A stretch of DNA of 28,259 bases, from positions 1-28,259 of the IMG/VR virus record IMGVR_UViG_3300020431_000027. One strand, written 5' to 3'. The stretch's first letter is position 1; every line of letters begins with the position of its first letter. The notes below the pieces were generated by a model. That model did no database searches and was not told where the DNA came from. It saw only the letters and a program-made list of their open reading frames with translations. Position numbers and translations under genes: made by a program. This DNA comes from a virus (lineage: Duplodnaviria; Caudoviricetes). Below are positions 12,815-23,293 of this stretch, piece by piece.

Positions 12815-13495
12815 ATGAACGCAACAGATGTAACAGCAGGAGGACAATTCCAATGTGGTGGAGGAAAGCCTGATATCTTAGGTCGTGGTCCCACAAAGGT
12901 CAGAGGATCTGCATATATCCAAGGTCCAGAGTTAGTTGGAGATCCTTCACAGTTTCCTGGTGCTGCTGGCAAAGGCAACCCATTTGAGATGGGGTCAGTG
13001 ATGGTTGGTCAGACTGGTAATCCAGAGATGTTGCCACCACCATTTTATGCATTATTTGCTACAACATTTGCTAGAATAAAATCATTCTTGAAAGTTGATT
13101 TGCTCTTGACAGTTAAGGTAATTAAGAGTAAAGTAATATACACAGAAGTACTTATGGCAAAAGTTAAAAACTTTGCTATACCACACCCAACACTACCAAA
13201 CACAAATTTAATTTATGCTTGTCTGGAAGGACCAGAAAATGCAGTCTATGTTAGAGGTGTTCTTAGAAATAATGATACTATAAAATTGCCAGATGTGTGG
13301 AGAGAGTTGGTAGATCCCAGAACAATTACAGTATCACTGACACCAGTTGGTTCTGAACAGGGTCTTGTACTGAAGAGAGCAACAAATAATGAAGTAGTTG
13401 TCCAGGCAAAACCTGGTATGCCAATTCACTGTCATTATCATGTGTTTGCAGAAAGAAAAGACGTAGAGAAACTAATAACAGAGGTTAATGTTTGA
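12815..13495 (+). CDS. Virion protein with C-terminal F.IPHP...LEGPE domain
   Basis: AGGAG Shine-Dalgarno upstream. C-terminal KNFAIPHP..LIYACLEGPENAVYVRG...ITVSLTP...YHVFAERKD. Confidence 0.8.
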   Translation: MNATDVTAGGQFQCGGGKPDILGRGPTKVRGSAYIQGPELVGDPSQFPGAAGKGNPFEMGSVMVGQTGNPEMLPPPFYALFATTFARIKSFLKVDLLLTVKVIKSKVIYTEVLMAKVKNFAIPHPTLPNTNLIYACLEGPENAVYVRGVLRNNDTIKLPDVWRELVDPRTITVSLTPVGSEQGLVLKRATNNEVVVQAKPGMPIHCHYHVFAERKDVEKLITEVNV

Positions 13496-14388
13496 TGTTA
13501 GATTTTACAAATTGGAAGGGTTTATTTACTTATCCAGAGGGAGGCAAAGAAGGATCATTGCCTTTTAAGTTTGAAAACTTTGGAACTTTTGCTGGTCCTC
13601 AGTACGCATCTGAGAATTATAACTATGAAACTGCTGCTCTAGAGGGGGCATGGCATACTACTGTTCCTGGTGACTATAGTTTTAAGAACCTTGACTTGGG
13701 TGTTTACCTTTTTAATAATCAGGCAAACTATGTGGGGTTTCATTGTGATGGTGTGTCCACAGCAATGATGACTCTTGAAGCATCATATGGCAATATTCCA
13801 GAGTTTAATGTACTTGCAACCACTACAAATGTTCTGGGTAATGTTAATGTTGTTGGCAATATTGTTTCAACAGGAAGTATTGTGGCAACTGGTGATATAG
13901 TTGCAAATAGTACATTTGTAATTAATGGAACTCTTGCTCTGACAGGAGTAGGTGACATGGCGTCATATGTGACAGAGACTAGGTCGATTGCTAGCTCTAA
14001 GAAAGGATTTGACATCCCACACCCTTCAAAAGAGGGTCATAGACTCAGATACATTTGTCTTGAAGGTCCTGATGCTGAGGTTTATGTAAGAGGTAAACTT
14101 AAAGGCAATAATATTATTGATCTTCCTGAAGTATGGAGGAGTTTGGTAGATCTAGAAACTGTTGGAGTTACTCTCACTCCTGTTGGGTTGTATCAAGAGT
14201 TATTTGTTGAATCAATTACGTGGGGCACTAGGATTACTATTAAAAATAATCTAGGTGGACCTATTAATTGTCACTACACAGTTTATGGTACTAGGAAGGA
14301 TGGAGAAAGAAACATTCCAGAGTATGAGGGATTGACAATTAATGACTATCCAGGTGATAATAGTGAATATAATATCAATAGTCTTTGA
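13495..14388 (+). CDS. Virion protein with beta-helical repeats and the same C-terminal IPHP/LEGP domain
   Basis: The TGATG overlap places the ATG at 13495. GNVNVVGNIVSTGSIVATGDIVA 6-residue repeats precede KGFDIPHP..LRYICLEGPDAEVYVRG. Confidence 0.8.
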   Translation: MLDFTNWKGLFTYPEGGKEGSLPFKFENFGTFAGPQYASENYNYETAALEGAWHTTVPGDYSFKNLDLGVYLFNNQANYVGFHCDGVSTAMMTLEASYGNIPEFNVLATTTNVLGNVNVVGNIVSTGSIVATGDIVANSTFVINGTLALTGVGDMASYVTETRSIASSKKGFDIPHPSKEGHRLRYICLEGPDAEVYVRGKLKGNNIIDLPEVWRSLVDLETVGVTLTPVGLYQELFVESITWGTRITIKNNLGGPINCHYTVYGTRKDGERNIPEYEGLTINDYPGDNSEYNINSL

Positions 14389-15084: not shown

Positions 15085-16122
15085 ATGTCTTTTGGAGTAA
15101 CTACATACAGTAATGGCGCTCAAGGTATTTTGAAAGCTAATATTGAATCTTTGGACCAAAGTATAGCAGGTCAGAGTTCAAACAATACACGTGATATTCA
15201 GCAATATAGGTATGATTTGTTTCAATCATCTAGTGGCAAATTAGATCAGAAAATTCTTGATTCACTTGGACCCTCTAACACTAAAAAGGGTGAGGTCAAC
15301 TCAATAGGTTCTATATCAAATTTTCTTTCTTGTCCAATATATTATCCATCTGAGAGTGATGCTGAAAATGCAGCTCAAAGTATATTTGGAACAGCAGCAG
15401 AAGCAGGATCTACTGGATTACTTTCTAATGTAACAACTTATTTTGCTGTTGGTGTTACTACAACTACTACTTTAAATCTCAGTGAAGGTGCAACAGTAAC
15501 TGCAGGTGGTGTTAATTTTGGAATAAATGCATGGGATGCAACTATTACTGGTAGTGGAATATATGCAGTTAAGAATTGGGATAAGGGTGCTTCTGTTAGT
15601 GTGGGATCTACACTTATTGTAGGATCTACTTCTACTACTGTGACTTCTATTCAATATGTTGGTGTAGGTGAAATCTATCAAGATATGATTGCTGTTTCAG
15701 CATATCCAAACCTAGAACCACCTAATCCAGGTTCTAGTTCACCATTTACAGGATCTCAAACACAAACATTATCTGCAGGAAATTTAGGAAATGGTATAGG
15801 AAATACATCTTATCCCAATGGTATTATAGATGGAACTTTTGGTAATTTGGCAGATGTTCAAGGTGGTATTCCTAAGATAGGAGATGTTCTTGCTTTTGAT
15901 ACATCTTCTTGTTCTACACAGGCAGGAAATATTAGTGCATCTAGGGGTGAGATTGGTGGTTTAAGAGGTGAAATTCAATCTTCTACTAATTCTACTAATG
16001 TAATTAAAGATCTTAAGAAACAATATGCAGTCAATGTCTGGTCTCTAGACAAGAGTGTTGTTGATAATGATGCAAGAAAATCTCAATTGCAGTCTGCCAT
16101 TGGCATTTTGGACACTCTATGA
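15085..16122 (+). CDS. Hypothetical virion structural protein
   Basis: 345-aa Ser/Thr/Gly-rich ORF with helical termini, its own late promoter and an RBS. Confidence 0.75.
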   Translation: MSFGVTTYSNGAQGILKANIESLDQSIAGQSSNNTRDIQQYRYDLFQSSSGKLDQKILDSLGPSNTKKGEVNSIGSISNFLSCPIYYPSESDAENAAQSIFGTAAEAGSTGLLSNVTTYFAVGVTTTTTLNLSEGATVTAGGVNFGINAWDATITGSGIYAVKNWDKGASVSVGSTLIVGSTSTTVTSIQYVGVGEIYQDMIAVSAYPNLEPPNPGSSSPFTGSQTQTLSAGNLGNGIGNTSYPNGIIDGTFGNLADVQGGIPKIGDVLAFDTSSCSTQAGNISASRGEIGGLRGEIQSSTNSTNVIKDLKKQYAVNVWSLDKSVVDNDARKSQLQSAIGILDTL

Positions 16123-16166
16123 TCTGTCCACTACTCATTGACACAGACAATTAAATGATCTATAGT
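16109..16166 (+). promoter_or_regulatory. Sigma70-type (early) promoter with upstream palindrome
   Basis: TTGACA (16138-16143)-N17-TATAGT (16161-16166), with TGGACA-N10-TGTCCA at 16109-16130. Confidence 0.8.
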
Positions 16167-16860: not shown

Positions 16861-17150
16861 AACAACTCTTTGTGGTGGAAACTGGTGACAACTCCTGCGT
16901 TACACATGATGGATATATTCAGATTGGTATCTTCAGTCATTCTGTAGAGAAGCATCTTGAGATGAATCCTTTGATTGATTGGCAAGTAACTTATTGGATG
17001 CCTGATCCATTTTGTATCAGATACAAGAGAATTAACTACCAGCATACAATGAAGGCGAATGAAGGTTCTCCTAAAACTGATAATGCTGGTGATAGTCGTC
17101 CTAGAGACTTCCCAGACCAAGCAACAAATAGACTGGAGAGAACCTTATGA
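16857..17150 (+). CDS. Hypothetical protein
   Basis: 97-aa ORF with a TTG start, an upstream GAGG Shine-Dalgarno and 4-nt overlaps with both neighbours. Confidence 0.75.
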   Translation: MKQLFVVETGDNSCVTHDGYIQIGIFSHSVEKHLEMNPLIDWQVTYWMPDPFCIRYKRINYQHTMKANEGSPKTDNAGDSRPRDFPDQATNRLERTL

Positions 17151-17326
17151 AAATTAATCTCTGGTACAGCAAATCAATGGAACAGTGGCGTTGGACACTG
17201 GTAGAAGAATGGAGAAATGGAGAAGTCCATACTGAGCAACATTCTGGTCAGCAACCAGAACTTCGTATTGCAATGAATGATGTAGCAAATACAGTAGAAT
17301 ATATACTTGACACCCAAAAAAAATAA
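17147..17326 (+). CDS. Small hypothetical protein (59 aa, not in ORF track)
   Basis: ATGA overlap and upstream GGAG. Translation: MKINLWYSKSMEQWRWTLVEEWRNGEVHTEQHSGQQPELRIAMNDVANTVEYILDTQKK. Confidence 0.75.
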   Translation: MKINLWYSKSMEQWRWTLVEEWRNGEVHTEQHSGQQPELRIAMNDVANTVEYILDTQKK

Positions 17327-17335
17327 TATTATGAT
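17307..17335 (+). promoter_or_regulatory. Sigma70-type promoter
   Basis: TTGACA (17307-17312)-N17-TATGAT (17330-17335). Confidence 0.65.
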
Positions 17336-17340
17336 AATTT

Positions 17341-17391
17341 GGTGTGAAGGAAGTCGTTAATTAACAACCCCCTAACTTGGGGGGTTTTTTT
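17341..17391 (+). ncRNA. Candidate small RNA of about 50 nt
   Basis: Lies between the sigma70 promoter and an intrinsic terminator with no credible ORF. Sequence: GGUGUGAAGGAAGUCGUUAAUUAACAACCCCCUAACUUGGGGGGUUUUUUU. Confidence 0.5.
17366..17391 (+). terminator. Rho-independent terminator
   Basis: AACCCCCTA-ACT-TGGGGGGTT stem-loop running into a T7 tract. Confidence 0.88.
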
Positions 17392-17394
17392 GTG

Positions 17395-17402
17395 GATAAA
17401 TA
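17395..17402 (+). promoter_or_regulatory. T4-like late promoter
   Basis: GATAAATA just after the terminator and 29 nt before the ATG at 17432. Confidence 0.75.
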
Positions 17403-17431
17403 TATCATAATAGATATCGTATGCGAGAAAG

Positions 17432-20400
17432 ATGCCGCTATCAAGACTTGATAACTTCCTCAAGAATGTACGTGGAAATATTCTGTATGTAAGTCCCAAT
17501 GACCTAGATTCTACTGATGATATTGATAATCAGGGAAACTCATTAGGGCGTCCATTTAAGACAATCCAAAGAGCACTCATTGAGGCATCAAGATTTTCTT
17601 ATCAAAAGGGTCTTGATAATGATAGATTTGGTAAGACTACCATTGTATTATATCCTGGTGATCATGTTGTTGACAACAGACCTGGGTGGATTCCACTTAC
17701 TGGACCAGTTTATAGATTGAGAGATGGAAGTACCTCTAATGAATTTCCTCCATTTAATACTTTATCTAACTTTGATGTAGATTCTCCAACAAATCAACTA
17801 TACAAATTAAATAGTGTTCATGGTGGTGTAATTATTCCACGTGGTGTGTCCATTGTGGGTATGGATCTACGTAAAACTAAGATTCGTCCTAAGTATGTTC
17901 CAAATCCTGAAAATAGCAATATTGAAAGAACTGCTATTTTTAGAGTAACTGGTGGTTCTTACTTTTGGCAGTTTACTATTTTTGATGGAAATCCAAATGG
18001 AAAGGTATATAAAGATTATTCAACAGCAGAATTTGTACCTAACTTCTCTCATCATAAAGTAACTGCTTTTGAATATGCAGATGGAGTTAATGATGTATAC
18101 ATTAATGACGCCTTTATTTCTAATACACAATATTCAAGAACTGATCTTGAGATGTATTATGAGAAAGTAGGACTTGCTTATGGACCTGCTTCTGGTAGAG
18201 CAATTGAACCAGATTATCCTTCATCTGGTCTTGATATTGAAGCAAAAATTGATGAGTATCGTATTGTTGGTCCTCAGGGTGGTGCAGTTGGTATTACTAG
18301 CATCAGAGCAGGTGATGGAGTCACAGCAACTACAAGTATTACTGTTGAATTAGAATCGCCTGGATTAGAAGGTTTAAATGTAGATACAGCATTCCAGATT
18401 AATGATTGTATTGATCCAGCATATAATGGTTCATTCCTTGTAGATAGTGTACTAACTAGAGATTCTTCTACTGGGAGAACCACCAAGTTTGTCTATAATG
18501 TAGGAAATGCTCCTACAGATGCTCTAGAGACTCCAGCATCTGCAAGTGTTGAATTGGATAATGATACCGTAACATCAGCATCACCTTACATATTTAACAT
18601 CTCATTGAGATCTGTTTACGGTATGTGTGGTATGCATGCTGATGGATCTAAGGCAACTGGATTCAAATCTATGGTTGTTGCTCAGTTTACTGGAGTATCA
18701 CTGCAGAAAGATGATAATGCATTCCTGAAATATGATAAGACAACAGGCACATTCCTGTATGCTAATAATGTTTCTAATATCCACAGTGATCCAGATGCAA
18801 AATATAGACCAGAATACACTAACTTCCATATTAAAGCATCAAATAATGCTATTTGTCAGTTAGTATCTATTTTTGCTATTGGTTATTCGCAGCAGTTTAT
18901 TACTGAAAGTGGTGGTGACTTTTCAGTTACTAACTCTAACTCTAACTTTGGAGAAATTGCTCTTAATTCAATTGGATTCAGAGAACAGGCGTTTTTGCAG
19001 GATGACGTTGGATATATTACACATATAATTCCTCCTCAAGAGATTCAAAGCTCTGATTTCAACCTTGAATATGATGCAATTGATGTGACCAATACTATTG
19101 GTATTTCATCTACAAATAGACTATATCTTTACAATAAAGTCAATGAATCAGTTCCTCCAAAAGGAGTTCTTCAAGGTCACAGAATTGGCGCAAAGATAAA
19201 TGATACTTTGAATGTTGGTATCACTAGTGATGGAACTCTGAAGACAAAGAGTGCTCGTATTGTGATGCAAGGTACTGAGAACACCACTAATCAGGTAACC
19301 TCAGTAAAGGCAAATATTGTTGGCAGAACTTCTAGTGGAATCAACAGTATCACAGCAAATGTAATTACTCTTGTTAAAAATCATCAGTTATTAAATGGTG
19401 AATCTATCAGATTTATTTCTGACACATCAAGATTGCCTGATGGTCTGATTAATAATAAGGTATATTATGCTGTAACTGATGGATTGAATGCCAATCAACT
19501 TAAAGTTGCATCTTCATTCAGTGAGGCATCAACAGGTCAATCAATCCCCATCAATAATAAGGGTGGAACAATCAAGATTGAAAGTAGAGTTAGTGATAAG
19601 ATTCCTGGTGGGGTAGGACACCCTATTCAGTTTGATACTAGTAATAATCAATGGTATATCAATGTAGGAACTGGATCCACAGATAATGATATCTACTCTA
19701 CATTAGTTGGTGTTGGAGTAAGCATATTAGGAACAGCAACATCCAGATCTTATATTGTGAGAAGGTCTGATGATAGGTCATTAAGTGATAAGATCTACAA
19801 ACTCAGATATGTTATTCCGTCTGGTGTTGGTATTACATCAGCAAGACCACCTAGAACTTCATTTGTTCTTCAAGAATCTAATGATGTAACAGGTTCTACA
19901 AATACTGAGGTTGCGCTTCAATACAATCCAAACTCAGTGACTATGAGCAATTCTGCTCAGATGAGAAACTTTAGATATATTTCTAATGCAGAATATTCTG
20001 GTGGCAACCTTAATTTTACAACTGAGATTCCACATGGTCTTAAGTCTGGGTCAAAAGTTAAGATTAATAATGTAACATGTACAGTTAATACTGTTGGACT
20101 AGCTAATTCTGGTTATAATGGTACATATACTGTAGTTAATGTATCAAATTCTAATAAGTTTGCTGTAACTTCACCTCCTACCAATCCAGGAACATTTACT
20201 AACAACACTTCACAGAGAACTACTTCACTGCCTAGTTATCAAAAAGTCCAGGCAGTAAATAACTACTTTGTTTATGATATAGACACAGTAAGAGAATATC
20301 AAAATGGTACTCAAGATGGTGTTTACTATCTAACTATTATTGATGCAAGCAATACACCAGATATTGCACCATTCAATGATTCAGAAAAATATTCATTCCC

Positions 20401-23293
20401 ACAATCAGTTAAAGATCTCTATCCTCAGTATGATAGGGACAATCCTTCCTCTGATCCAAAATCTGCAATTTCATATGCTTCTGCTGATACCTTAGGTTTG
20501 GTTGATGTTGATGATGTTAAGAATAGTCTCACAAAGACTGCTGTTGATAATATAGGGAATGATCTTGCTGTTGGTGTTGCTATCACAGACATCAGATCTA
20601 ATAGTGCTGGAACTGCACATACAATTTATACCAGTGTTGAGCATGGTCTAAACAGAATTGTCTCACTTCAAATTGTAAATGGTGGATCTGGATATGGTAA
20701 TGGAACAGGTGCTGTAGAGAGTTTCTATAATGCTTCATTTACTGGTGCTGGTGTTACAGGAAGGCAGGCAACTAGTAGAATTACAGTAAATGGTTCAGGA
20801 ACTATTACTGATATTGAGATGATGGATCCTGGATCTAACTATCAGGTTGGAGACAACCTGACTGTTGTTGGTGTTGCAGTAACAACTGGACATGTTGCTG
20901 CTTCTGTTGCTGTCACATCAATCTATAATAACATTGGAGACACATTTAGAATTAGTGGTATTACCTCTTTCGCATATGAAGGATATAATCAACTATACAC
21001 TATCAGTGGTTTTTCATCTACAACAGAGATTAATGTAAAGTCTTTAAATCCTGTTGAGTCATCTTCATCAAATGGAGTTGGTTTTGATAATACAACTAAT
21101 GCTTCACTTAGATTGACAGGACCAACTATTGATGTTTCTACACTTTCTTATGATAATGTAACTGGTTTAGCCACAGTTACCACATCCACTAATCATGGAT
21201 TCGGAGCAAGTAGTGCAGTCACATTATCTGGTGCTACCAATGGTCTATACAATGGCAATTTCTCTGTAAGCAGAGTTGTAAGTCTAACTTCATTCATTGC
21301 TAATATTGGAATTTCAACCAATAATCCTGCCACAACAGGTTCAATTAAGGCACATAATTCTGGACAGACAGCACAACCTGGTCTCATTTCAATATATGAT
21401 GAGAACTTTGGTGGTAGAGTTCTGAATATCTATGATGGAATTACTGCACAACTTTTAGCACAGGTTCCCAATACATCTGTTGATGAAATTTCCATTGATA
21501 ATTTCACAGCATATGACTTTAAGATTGGAGATTATCTGAAAATTGATGATGAGATTGTAAGAATCAAGACTACTGTTTCTTCTAACCCAATCAAAGTATT
21601 CAGAGGTCTGTTTGGAACACAACCATCAATTCATGCATTGGGGTCTATTGTTAGGAGAGTTAAGATTAGTCCTCTTGAACTCAGAAGACCATCTATTATG
21701 CGCGCCTCTGGGCATACATTTGAATATGTTGGTTATGGACCTGGCAACTATTCTACTGCTCTTCCTGAGAAACAAGCAAGACAGTTAACTATTAAAGAGC
21801 AACTTGTTTCTCAATCATTTAATAGTTCTGGTGGAGTTACAGTATTCACTGGTATGAATGATAGAGGTGACTTCTTTGTTGGTAACAGGAAGATTACATC
21901 TAGCACTGGTAAGGAAGAGGTGTTTGATACACCAATTCCTACTGTTACAGGTGAAGATGTATTTTCCCTTGGACCTGACACTGGAACAGATATCATCAAT
22001 CCTTCTGATATTACTGTCTCTAGAACTCTTAAAGTTGAAGGTGGTGGGCTTGGCGATCTCCTTTCACAGTTTGATGGACCTACACTTTTTTCCAAAAAAC
22101 TTACATCAACATCACCTGATGGTATTGAAGCAAATACCTTATTTTTGCAAGGCAATGCTCCTGTTTCTAGGAAACTTACAGTTTCAACATCAAAACCAAC
22201 ATTAGCAGGAACACCTGGTGACATTGCTCTGTATTCTGATGTTGATACTGCTGAGATTACTAATGTTGGTTGGGTATTCACTAAGCAGGGAACCTGGAAT
22301 CAATTTGGTGCTGTCAGTGTAGATAGTGGTTCTAATGTACCTACATTTGATGGTGTAGGAATTGGAACCACAACACCTGGAGAATGTACCTTAAAGGTTG
22401 GTTCTGGTTCTTCAATGTTCTGTGTAGATGGAGACGGCGTTGGTATTGGAACTACTGCTAATGGTGTTAAACTCAGAGTTCATGGAACAATTTTCTCTGA
22501 TGCATATGCTGGTGATGGATCACAATTAATTAATCTTGCCAATGATAGCCTCTTTGAAGCAGTTGGTACTGGTGGAACAGGTATTACACCACTTGGAAAT
22601 CTGAATGTTGGTATTGGAACAACAATTCCATCAGGTGAATTTGCATTACAAGTTGGAAGTCCAGGTATTGCTGGTACTAATCTATATGTCGCTAATGCAT
22701 CTAGATTTATTGGAACTGCTGATTTTGGTGATGTGGTCATTAGTGGCAAATTCACTTCTACTGACTACAACTTGAACTCCACATCAGGGTCAATAGTTGC
22801 TGGCATTATTACTGCAACTTCAATGGATGTAGGAGTTGGTTCTACAATCTTTACTATTACTTCAAATGGTGTAGGCATTGGATCTGCAATCCCACAAGCA
22901 TCTCTTGATGTTGTATCACCCACAAGACTTCAGTCATATTATGAGTTTGCAGAGACAGTCGTAAGTTCTAGTGGTGCAGCAACTCTTGACCTTTCTAAGG
23001 GACAAACATTCTTAAATACCACAACTGAGAATATTAGTAAGTTTATTCTTTCAAATCCTATTCCCAACTCAAGTTCTTCATTCTCACTTAGAATTACACA
23101 GGGAGCAATAGCAAGAACAGTTGCTATTGATGTATTTGAGACTTCAAGTGGTGTATCAATCCCAGTCTATTGGTCAGGTGGTGTTGCACCAATAGTGACA
23201 CCATCTGCAAATAAGACAGACATATATTCATTCATCACATTTGATGGTGGTGCTTCATTGTATGGCGTAACAGGAGGACAGAACTTCTCATGA
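17432..23293 (+). CDS. Large virion structural protein (1953 aa), fibre/baseplate-associated
   Basis: N-terminus MPLSRLDNFLKN...RPFKTIQRALIE..PRGVSIVGMDLRKTKIRP is beta-helix-like. It has repeated beta-barrel modules (HGL..G..V.I...YNG.Y.V), GVGIGTT fibre repeats and a C-terminal WSGGVAP..T...DIYSF domain. Confidence 0.85.
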   Translation: MPLSRLDNFLKNVRGNILYVSPNDLDSTDDIDNQGNSLGRPFKTIQRALIEASRFSYQKGLDNDRFGKTTIVLYPGDHVVDNRPGWIPLTGPVYRLRDGSTSNEFPPFNTLSNFDVDSPTNQLYKLNSVHGGVIIPRGVSIVGMDLRKTKIRPKYVPNPENSNIERTAIFRVTGGSYFWQFTIFDGNPNGKVYKDYSTAEFVPNFSHHKVTAFEYADGVNDVYINDAFISNTQYSRTDLEMYYEKVGLAYGPASGRAIEPDYPSSGLDIEAKIDEYRIVGPQGGAVGITSIRAGDGVTATTSITVELESPGLEGLNVDTAFQINDCIDPAYNGSFLVDSVLTRDSSTGRTTKFVYNVGNAPTDALETPASASVELDNDTVTSASPYIFNISLRSVYGMCGMHADGSKATGFKSMVVAQFTGVSLQKDDNAFLKYDKTTGTFLYANNVSNIHSDPDAKYRPEYTNFHIKASNNAICQLVSIFAIGYSQQFITESGGDFSVTNSNSNFGEIALNSIGFREQAFLQDDVGYITHIIPPQEIQSSDFNLEYDAIDVTNTIGISSTNRLYLYNKVNESVPPKGVLQGHRIGAKINDTLNVGITSDGTLKTKSARIVMQGTENTTNQVTSVKANIVGRTSSGINSITANVITLVKNHQLLNGESIRFISDTSRLPDGLINNKVYYAVTDGLNANQLKVASSFSEASTGQSIPINNKGGTIKIESRVSDKIPGGVGHPIQFDTSNNQWYINVGTGSTDNDIYSTLVGVGVSILGTATSRSYIVRRSDDRSLSDKIYKLRYVIPSGVGITSARPPRTSFVLQESNDVTGSTNTEVALQYNPNSVTMSNSAQMRNFRYISNAEYSGGNLNFTTEIPHGLKSGSKVKINNVTCTVNTVGLANSGYNGTYTVVNVSNSNKFAVTSPPTNPGTFTNNTSQRTTSLPSYQKVQAVNNYFVYDIDTVREYQNGTQDGVYYLTIIDASNTPDIAPFNDSEKYSFPQSVKDLYPQYDRDNPSSDPKSAISYASADTLGLVDVDDVKNSLTKTAVDNIGNDLAVGVAITDIRSNSAGTAHTIYTSVEHGLNRIVSLQIVNGGSGYGNGTGAVESFYNASFTGAGVTGRQATSRITVNGSGTITDIEMMDPGSNYQVGDNLTVVGVAVTTGHVAASVAVTSIYNNIGDTFRISGITSFAYEGYNQLYTISGFSSTTEINVKSLNPVESSSSNGVGFDNTTNASLRLTGPTIDVSTLSYDNVTGLATVTTSTNHGFGASSAVTLSGATNGLYNGNFSVSRVVSLTSFIANIGISTNNPATTGSIKAHNSGQTAQPGLISIYDENFGGRVLNIYDGITAQLLAQVPNTSVDEISIDNFTAYDFKIGDYLKIDDEIVRIKTTVSSNPIKVFRGLFGTQPSIHALGSIVRRVKISPLELRRPSIMRASGHTFEYVGYGPGNYSTALPEKQARQLTIKEQLVSQSFNSSGGVTVFTGMNDRGDFFVGNRKITSSTGKEEVFDTPIPTVTGEDVFSLGPDTGTDIINPSDITVSRTLKVEGGGLGDLLSQFDGPTLFSKKLTSTSPDGIEANTLFLQGNAPVSRKLTVSTSKPTLAGTPGDIALYSDVDTAEITNVGWVFTKQGTWNQFGAVSVDSGSNVPTFDGVGIGTTTPGECTLKVGSGSSMFCVDGDGVGIGTTANGVKLRVHGTIFSDAYAGDGSQLINLANDSLFEAVGTGGTGITPLGNLNVGIGTTIPSGEFALQVGSPGIAGTNLYVANASRFIGTADFGDVVISGKFTSTDYNLNSTSGSIVAGIITATSMDVGVGSTIFTITSNGVGIGSAIPQASLDVVSPTRLQSYYEFAETVVSSSGAATLDLSKGQTFLNTTTENISKFILSNPIPNSSSSFSLRITQGAIARTVAIDVFETSSGVSIPVYWSGGVAPIVTPSANKTDIYSFITFDGGASLYGVTGGQNFS

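Follow-up and report, generated by a model that had tools for sequence, protein, structure and literature searches.

A family of predicted cyanophage RNAs complementary to the anticodon arm of host tRNA-Val(CAC)

The locus upstream of the tail fibre gene

The window (the whole stretch of DNA analysed, 28,259 nt) is part of a T4-like cyanophage genome. It carries genes for head closure, tail tube, baseplate hub and tail fibre proteins, as assigned by PHROGs, and its nearest DNA matches are Synechococcus phages. Between a run of small genes and a tail fibre gene lies a compact element with its own predicted promoter and terminator. The element and its neighbours are arranged as follows.

16138..16166, plus strand: second sigma70-type promoter (predicted), upstream of the small-gene run
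17147..17326, plus strand: phrog_2818 gene, 59 aa, function unknown; last of the small-gene run, its 3' end overlapping the -35 box
17307..17312, plus strand: -35 box TTGACA of a predicted sigma70-type (early) promoter; spacing to the head constant across the family
17330..17335, plus strand: -10 box TATGAT (predicted), after a 17-nt spacer; transcription start inferred at 17341 or 17342
17342..17354, plus strand: conserved single-stranded head GTGTGAAGGAAGT, exact complement of positions 26-38 of host tRNA-Val(CAC); also pairs with the Yfr1 motif if two bases bulge
17355..17365, plus strand: unpaired linker, in which a second tRNA-complementary block is reduced
17366..17391, plus strand: intrinsic terminator, a 9-pair G+C hairpin (17366-17386, 3-nt loop) with a T run to 17391
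17396..17402, plus strand: ATAAATA preceding the tail fibre gene, which we take to be its T4-like late-promoter motif; such a motif follows 33 of 43 terminator-class copies
17432..23293, plus strand: tail fibre gene, phrog_529, 1953 aa; downstream neighbour, outside the RNA

The promoter (TTGACA-N17-TATGAT, 17307-17335) agrees with the consensus at 11 of 12 positions and is one of four sites at that score between 10000 and 28259. Promoter-like sites alone are no more frequent in the window than expected by chance (65 found vs 68.5 in shuffles). With the start inferred 6 nt beyond the -10 box, 130 of 175 family members would begin with G or A. The predicted RNA would be 50-51 nt long with its 5' half unpaired, and its fold is not unusual (z -0.56); GGTGTGAAGGAAGT, at 17341-17354, is the head plus one preceding base. 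No plus-strand ORF lies between promoter and terminator. The sole ORF that spans the element is a 56-aa frame on the minus strand (17329-17499, TTG start) with no PHROG match, and a close relative has a 1-nt insertion in this frame (one contig, depth 5). When four metagenome DNA runs were compared with the window, one contig crossed the element, with two small changes, both outside the head. An earlier sequence-only reading of this DNA had described the same anatomy, namely the promoter, a predicted start at about 17341-17342, a terminator ending at 17391 and the lack of a credible ORF between them, and the sequence bears it out. The terminator may also end the upstream small-gene transcript, and the promoter at 16138..16166 is a possible source of read-through into the element.

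The window contains no tRNA gene (ARAGORN found 0 genes and no cloverleaf on either strand, and Rfam no tRNA). The Rfam search that the sequence-only reading had proposed gave no family match: nothing in the window came near a gathering score, and models for T-boxes and for cyanophage RNAs were unmatched both there and in 20 related loci. The phrog_1134 gene just upstream (16905-17150) is represented by many contigs, 85-95% alike, from four metagenomes, and is far more widespread than its flanks. Two adjacent paralogous genes at 12815-14388 (226 and 298 aa) both match phrog_17490 and phrog_28536, of unknown function, and a 345-aa ORF at 15085-16122 has no PHROG match.

Distribution of the element among phages and their hosts

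A search of the viral collection with the pattern TTGAC-N24-36-GTGTGAAGGAAG (17 of 64 parts scanned) matched 120 loci, from which about 480 stretches are estimated for the whole collection. Of the 13 gaps between -35 box and head that the pattern allows, just four, of 30, 31, 33 or 34 nt, account for 106 of the 120 loci, and they form two clusters, 30-31 nt (78 loci) and 33-34 nt (28 loci). The unit precedes a tail fibre gene in phages S-SM2 and S-B43 also, the same place as in the window. Because both the spacing from promoter to head and the position before the tail fibre gene are conserved, the element is considered real beyond chance. After removal of duplicates and filtering on a downstream hairpin and on likeness to the head, 173 of 187 members were kept. 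Their heads are followed by tRNA-Gly(TCC) (74 copies), tRNA-Leu (13), a terminator (43), or other or cut sequence (43). A second class lies behind ATAAATA, where 45 of 88 unique matches have a hairpin and T run, 31 of these at one spacing. Since many of these copies, and the phages that carry them, are related to each other, counts of copies are not counts of independent events.

Linkers and hairpins vary freely, while the head keeps a fixed distance behind two types of promoter and in unrelated gene contexts. That the head stays constant while promoter, body and neighbours change suggests an RNA that acts in trans. The window copy has the features of the unit: a promoter at the fixed spacing, a head complementary to the anticodon arm and a 3' hairpin. 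The search for the head flanked by promoter and terminator, as the sequence-only reading had advised, turned up a large conserved family, and its idea of an early, self-contained phage sRNA survives in this form: judged by comparison among family members, the RNA appears self-contained, conserved and probably early, with a start site that is predicted. The linker of some syntenic relatives (S-B43, L041 and L050) holds a second block, complementary to tRNA nt 5-14. In the window copy this block is reduced and not significant (p 0.9), and family-wide it does not rise above controls (12 of 175 members, vs up to 19 for other tRNA windows); it is seen in a subfamily only.

Two inserts found behind the head are worth recording. 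Insert A (L1042:138-190 and 73 more, L1042-L1115) is a structured stretch of about 50 nt that includes a hairpin capped by GAAA and what looks by eye like a kink-turn. In 64 of 74 viral matches it follows the anti-Val head immediately, and in several others it occurs alone between tRNA genes; it has no Rfam match. A resemblance to the 23S L1 stalk was rejected, the best alignment lying elsewhere and 62 of 500 shuffles scoring as well. Insert B (69 nt behind the head; L428, L433, L455, L469, L485, L497, L514) can be folded into four cloverleaf-like stems with a closing stem of 7 pairs; the three such loci that were scanned had no Rfam match to it. Insert B is possibly a tRNA mimic fused to the anti-tRNA head.

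The unit occurs in 6 of 14 phages isolated on Synechococcus (S-SM2, S-B43, S-SKS1, Syn9, S-SM1 and SynMITS9220M01) and was found in 0 of 9 isolated on Prochlorococcus and in 0 of 1 single-cell virus. These 24 phage records were searched allowing two mismatches, by which heads with insertions could be missed. The split between Synechococcus and Prochlorococcus phages gives p 0.03, or p 0.08 if the two phages of MIT9303, a Prochlorococcus that presumably has tRNA-Val(CAC), are moved to the tRNA-bearing side. Among host-family genomes, the tRNA-Val(CAC) pattern is present in 121 of 123 of at least 2.0 Mb vs 3 of 38 smaller ones; the small, low-G+C genomes are taken as Prochlorococcus from their size and composition. 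The host of the phage in the window may be of either kind: its closer relatives include P-TIM68, a phage of Prochlorococcus that lacks the unit, and one of its tail proteins finds its best match there. An apparent match in Syn1 was rejected as an element, being the opposite strand of that phage's own tRNA-Val(TAC).

Predicted pairing of the head with tRNA-Val(CAC) and with Yfr1

Positions 26-38 of tRNA-Val(CAC) comprise the 5' strand of the anticodon stem and the loop. The complementary 18-mer is the anticodon arm of this tRNA in 111 of 119 genome matches. Each of 5 picocyanobacterial genomes contains the exact 13-mer a single time; in WH7803 this copy is part of the tRNA-Val(CAC) gene, and in the other four it falls at tRNA-arm loci. 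As for possible mRNA targets, the 5 host genomes hold no further exact 13-mer and 4 one-mismatch sites in all. Compared with the 39 tRNAs of WH7803, the window RNA pairs with tRNA-Val(CAC) in a run of 13 at -14.6 kcal/mol, while all others reach runs of at most 7 and at best -5.4 kcal/mol. A fixed 13-mer would turn up by chance in a tRNA set of this kind with a probability of about 4e-5. The window copy mismatches the tRNA at 17341 and 17355, just outside the 13-mer.

Conservation beyond the head follows the tRNA as well. In 94 unique copies with a -10 box (of 105), the bases after the head, which lie outside the search pattern, agree with the tRNA complement at +1 (T, 83 of 94), +2 (G, 72) and +3 (C, 53), and of these only the third separates the tRNA from Yfr1 (C in 53 copies, T in 23). 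Ahead of the head, CC is found in 27 of 27 long-gap copies and in 39 of 45 late-promoter copies; this favours the tRNA, because CC pairs with its G39-G40, whereas Yfr1 needs GG. If four spellings are allowed behind the promoter, the 114 unique heads comprise 81 of tRNA type and 15 of Yfr2 type, the latter close to the 11 and 7 of the two control spellings. Heads with the CC extension have lost the AAG tail in 23 of 34 cases, vs 7 of 47 without it.

The anticodon arm varies little among hosts: of the 124 genomes with tRNA-Val(CAC), 117 of the arms listed are canonical; a compensated stem change is found in 6, and a different change in 1. A phage variant of the head, GATG, mirrors both sides of the host stem change and forms up to 18 contiguous pairs, and ATCC precedes the head in 10 of 17 GATG copies vs 2 of 34 GAAG copies. 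The two changes of this variant also preserve a hairpin within the phage RNA, and the variant may be one lineage. The trade-off between CC and AAG, together with the host-matched variant, argues for selection on pairing, and from these sequence comparisons the family has very probably been selected to pair with tRNA-Val(CAC). As a separate observation, seven host genomes (G009, G068, G044, G030, G101, G126 and G114; loci L537-L543) have a divergent tRNA-Val(CAC) with changed anticodon stems. The stem in G030 is matched by no phage head seen, and is a possible escape allele.

The sequence-only reading had proposed that the RNA is a sponge for the host sRNA Yfr1. Its underlying observation, that the head is nearly complementary to the Yfr1 motif if two A residues bulge, is real, and the binding is chemically plausible. 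Host Yfr2 offers a precedent: it pairs with Yfr1 and neutralises it (PMC2518516) and relieves repression of a porin reporter (PMC6778093), with relief by Yfr2 described in Nostoc also (PMC6974561). The predicted binding of the window RNA to five Yfr1 sequences (-12.9 to -16.2 kcal/mol) is as strong as that of two host Yfr2 RNAs, which, as the positive control, give only -11.1 and -13.3 kcal/mol with Yfr1. A phage RNA of this kind would act like Yfr2 on Yfr1/Yfr10, whether this is its principal function or Yfr1 is a second target for short copies such as the one in the window, and porin and cell-wall mRNAs would be released from repression by Yfr1. Being unpaired, the Yfr1 motif is more accessible than a tRNA arm. 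With Synechococcus Yfr1 one further pair is gained through G17341, and the base at -1 of the short copies, where G would make this extra pair, is G in 31 of 67 and C in 0 of 67. Cofolding of the window copy gives -14.6 to -16.0 kcal/mol for tRNA-Val(CAC), vs the range quoted above for Yfr1, depending on start site and host, and so does not separate the two partners, in a model that ignores tRNA tertiary structure and modifications, the inclusion of which would favour Yfr1. Predicted energy is better with the tRNA in 158 of 175 family members, a tally that is partly so by construction because members were filtered on likeness to the head. Yet the Yfr1 reading is outmatched, because the head pairs with 13 contiguous bases of the tRNA arm and in perfect runs of only 6-7 with Yfr1, so that the sequence-only reading's own ground for giving up Yfr1, a better match elsewhere, is what was found. 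The A residues that would bulge are kept family-wide, the CC extensions and the GATG variant fit the tRNA only, and the unit was not found in the 9 Prochlorococcus phages though small host genomes keep Yfr1 (4 of 5 tested). Heads complementary to Yfr1 with no bulge are rare behind a promoter, with 27 stretches in the whole viral collection, 14 of them unique, and a single credible clade of 4. On balance a Yfr1 sponge, as main function or as second target, is unlikely, though binding of Yfr1 by the window copy is plausible.

Two further alternatives concern what pairing with the tRNA is for, and whether there is an RNA at all. The head could serve counter-defence, by masking or removing tRNA-Val(CAC), or a cleavage product of it, that is sensed or cut by an anti-phage system. 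All of the complementarity evidence applies here equally, tRNA-cutting defence systems are common, and such a role would explain both why a single tRNA is targeted, no other unit being seen in 8 genomes, and the lack of any special avoidance of GTG. On the other side, the analysis identified no defence system directed at this tRNA, and translation would lose a tRNA held in a duplex just as it loses one that is cut. The pairing of long copies extends to either side of the anticodon, a better fit to an intact arm than to half of one. We rate counter-defence as improbable, to about the same degree as the sponge. Far less probable is that the stretch has no RNA function, being the terminator of the upstream operon plus a DNA-level motif or the relic of an inverted tRNA gene. 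Consistent with such an origin, the -35 box lies inside the coding end of the upstream gene, an upstream promoter is present at 16138, and some syntenic relatives resemble the antisense of tRNA nt 5-40, as an inverted copy would. What speaks against it is that the head is held at its distance behind either promoter type while linkers and hairpins change, and that the compensating changes noted above point to pairing as what is selected. A role as an integration site was dropped by argument, as the identity stops short of the tRNA 3' end and no integrase is among the 23 proteins scanned.

A different locus deserves mention in connection with Yfr1. The sequence GTGTGTGAGGAG (L809:1501-1519, also L685, L690, L695 and L710) is a Yfr1-type complement with no bulge, with a promoter and terminator. 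It belongs to a different phage clade (70-kb record, about 50% G+C at the locus), where it lies between two ribonucleotide reductase genes on the opposite strand. It is the better candidate for a true phage Yfr1 sponge, and could also be a feature of the opposite strand.

Proposed action and relation to known systems

In the preferred reading, this conserved locus is the gene of a predicted 50-nt RNA that would bind host tRNA-Val(CAC) and take it out of use during infection. This is probable, though held less firmly than selection on pairing, because the presumed purpose, slowing the translation of GUG-rich host messages, is weaker than the pairing claim. Early in infection, host RNA polymerase would start at 17341 or 17342. 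Pairing would begin at the 7-nt anticodon loop, from where the head would invade the 5-pair stem and displace the 3' strand of the stem, giving a 13-bp duplex in which the tRNA should be unable to decode. The 3' hairpin would both end and protect the RNA; in other copies, a downstream tRNA gene might release it through tRNA processing. Most speculatively, loss of the GUG-only reader would slow host genes, with tRNA-Val(UAC) still able to read GUG. Most carrier phages themselves encode tRNA-Val(UAC), in a form that should escape their own RNA.

Codon usage bears on this last step. GTG makes up about 10% of Val codons in the phage (61 of 616 in the window) and about 47% in the host (206 of 441 in host loci, from crude ORF calls). 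It is not specially avoided in the window, since other G-ending codons of four-codon boxes are rarer still (2.9%), and its genome-wide fraction is no different in four carriers (0.089-0.108) and four non-carriers (0.076-0.118). A comparison of specific GTG avoidance in 4 vs 18 partial regions gives p 0.26. The 2.9% refers to the Ala, Pro, Thr and Gly boxes and lies between the values for P-TIM68 (1.6%) and for Synechococcus phages (4-7% genome-wide), which would be compatible with either kind of host. From a reading of the matches, a tRNA-Val(TAC)-like gene is present in 5 of 6 carriers vs 4 of 18 non-carriers, and in the 4 carriers checked it pairs with the head over only 4-5 bases.

No other anti-tRNA unit with promoter and terminator was found among matches of at least 12 nt to the 39 host arms in 8 phage genomes, one of which was covered for 200 of 229 kb. 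In S-PM2 (L773:1547), and also in L816, L826, L838, L857 and L901, a late 5' leader carries a 12-14-nt complement of the anticodon arm of tRNA-Gly(CCC). The distance of these leaders from ATAAATA is similar to that in the late anti-Val class, and they run into a start codon with no terminator. The complement may be a coincidence of the ribosome-binding site. Two scans for an anti-Gly(CCC) unit gave a hairpin and T run in 1 of 85 and 1 of 91 unique matches, neither convincing.

Taken at its widest, the proposal is that a widespread, trans-acting antisense RNA lets T4-like cyanophages put one host tRNA isoacceptor out of action through invasion of its anticodon arm. The RNA would co-evolve with the sequence of that tRNA and spare the phage's own tRNA-Val(UAC), and short copies such as the one in the window may also sponge Yfr1. 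Whether the whole of this translation takeover by RNA only is correct we regard as evenly balanced.

Of known RNAs, Yfr2 (Cyano-1, RF01701) is closest in appearance. Both are short, with an unpaired 5' head (GUGUG...AGGA) that can pair with the Yfr1 motif, in the phage RNA with two bulged bases, and Yfr2 genes too lie at unconserved loci and are sometimes fused to a downstream gene, according to PMC2662882. In Yfr2, the same source adds, a long stem bulged at -4 carries a conserved central loop, and the phage RNA has no such structure: host copies have a GAAAC(A/G)AGG loop motif, and the window RNA only the 3-nt-loop hairpin of its terminator. The phage head differs also by two extra A residues (GTGTGAAGGAAG vs GTGAGGA in host copies) and pairs perfectly with tRNA-Val(CAC), to which host Yfr2 is predicted to bind weakly (-5.5 and -8.1 kcal/mol). 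Membership of the Yfr2 family was rejected when covariance-model and central-loop tests failed, and on this evidence the phage RNA would also act differently from Yfr2; the RF01701 model, which finds host copies in 5 of 5 picocyanobacteria, gave no match in the window (E up to 5) or in 20 family loci (E up to 1). The cyanophage RNAs in Rfam (wcaG, manA, glnA, PhotoRC-II and abiF) are likewise non-coding, from T4-like cyanophages and often near tRNA clusters, but they do not match the window or the 20 related loci, nor are they described as antisense to tRNA in what is available of PMC10665884 and PMC9964418. In those parts of the open-licence literature available, neither a phage RNA antisense to a host tRNA nor a cyanophage Yfr1 sponge was found. 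With no Rfam entry and no counterpart there, the anti-tRNA-Val(CAC) RNA would be new.

In T-even phages, infection induces the loss of a host-preferred tRNA-Leu. The T-box riboswitch recognises a tRNA anticodon through base pairs, as a long cis-acting leader with a 3-nt codon contact and an antiterminator; the phage RNA, in contrast, has an antisense head of 13-18 nt on a unit of 30-65 nt, occurs in varied contexts and has no Rfam T-box match. PrrC, PARIS and retron Eco7 resemble the proposed system in that the anticodon arm of one tRNA is targeted and a phage isoacceptor escapes (PMC4810235). These are host proteins that cut tRNA, whereas here a phage RNA would act by base pairing. Known conflicts between phage and host over tRNA are fought with nucleases, repair enzymes and spare tRNAs; if the preferred reading is true, a new mechanism of host takeover or counter-defence would be at work in abundant ocean viruses, and would bear on why cyanophages carry tRNAs.
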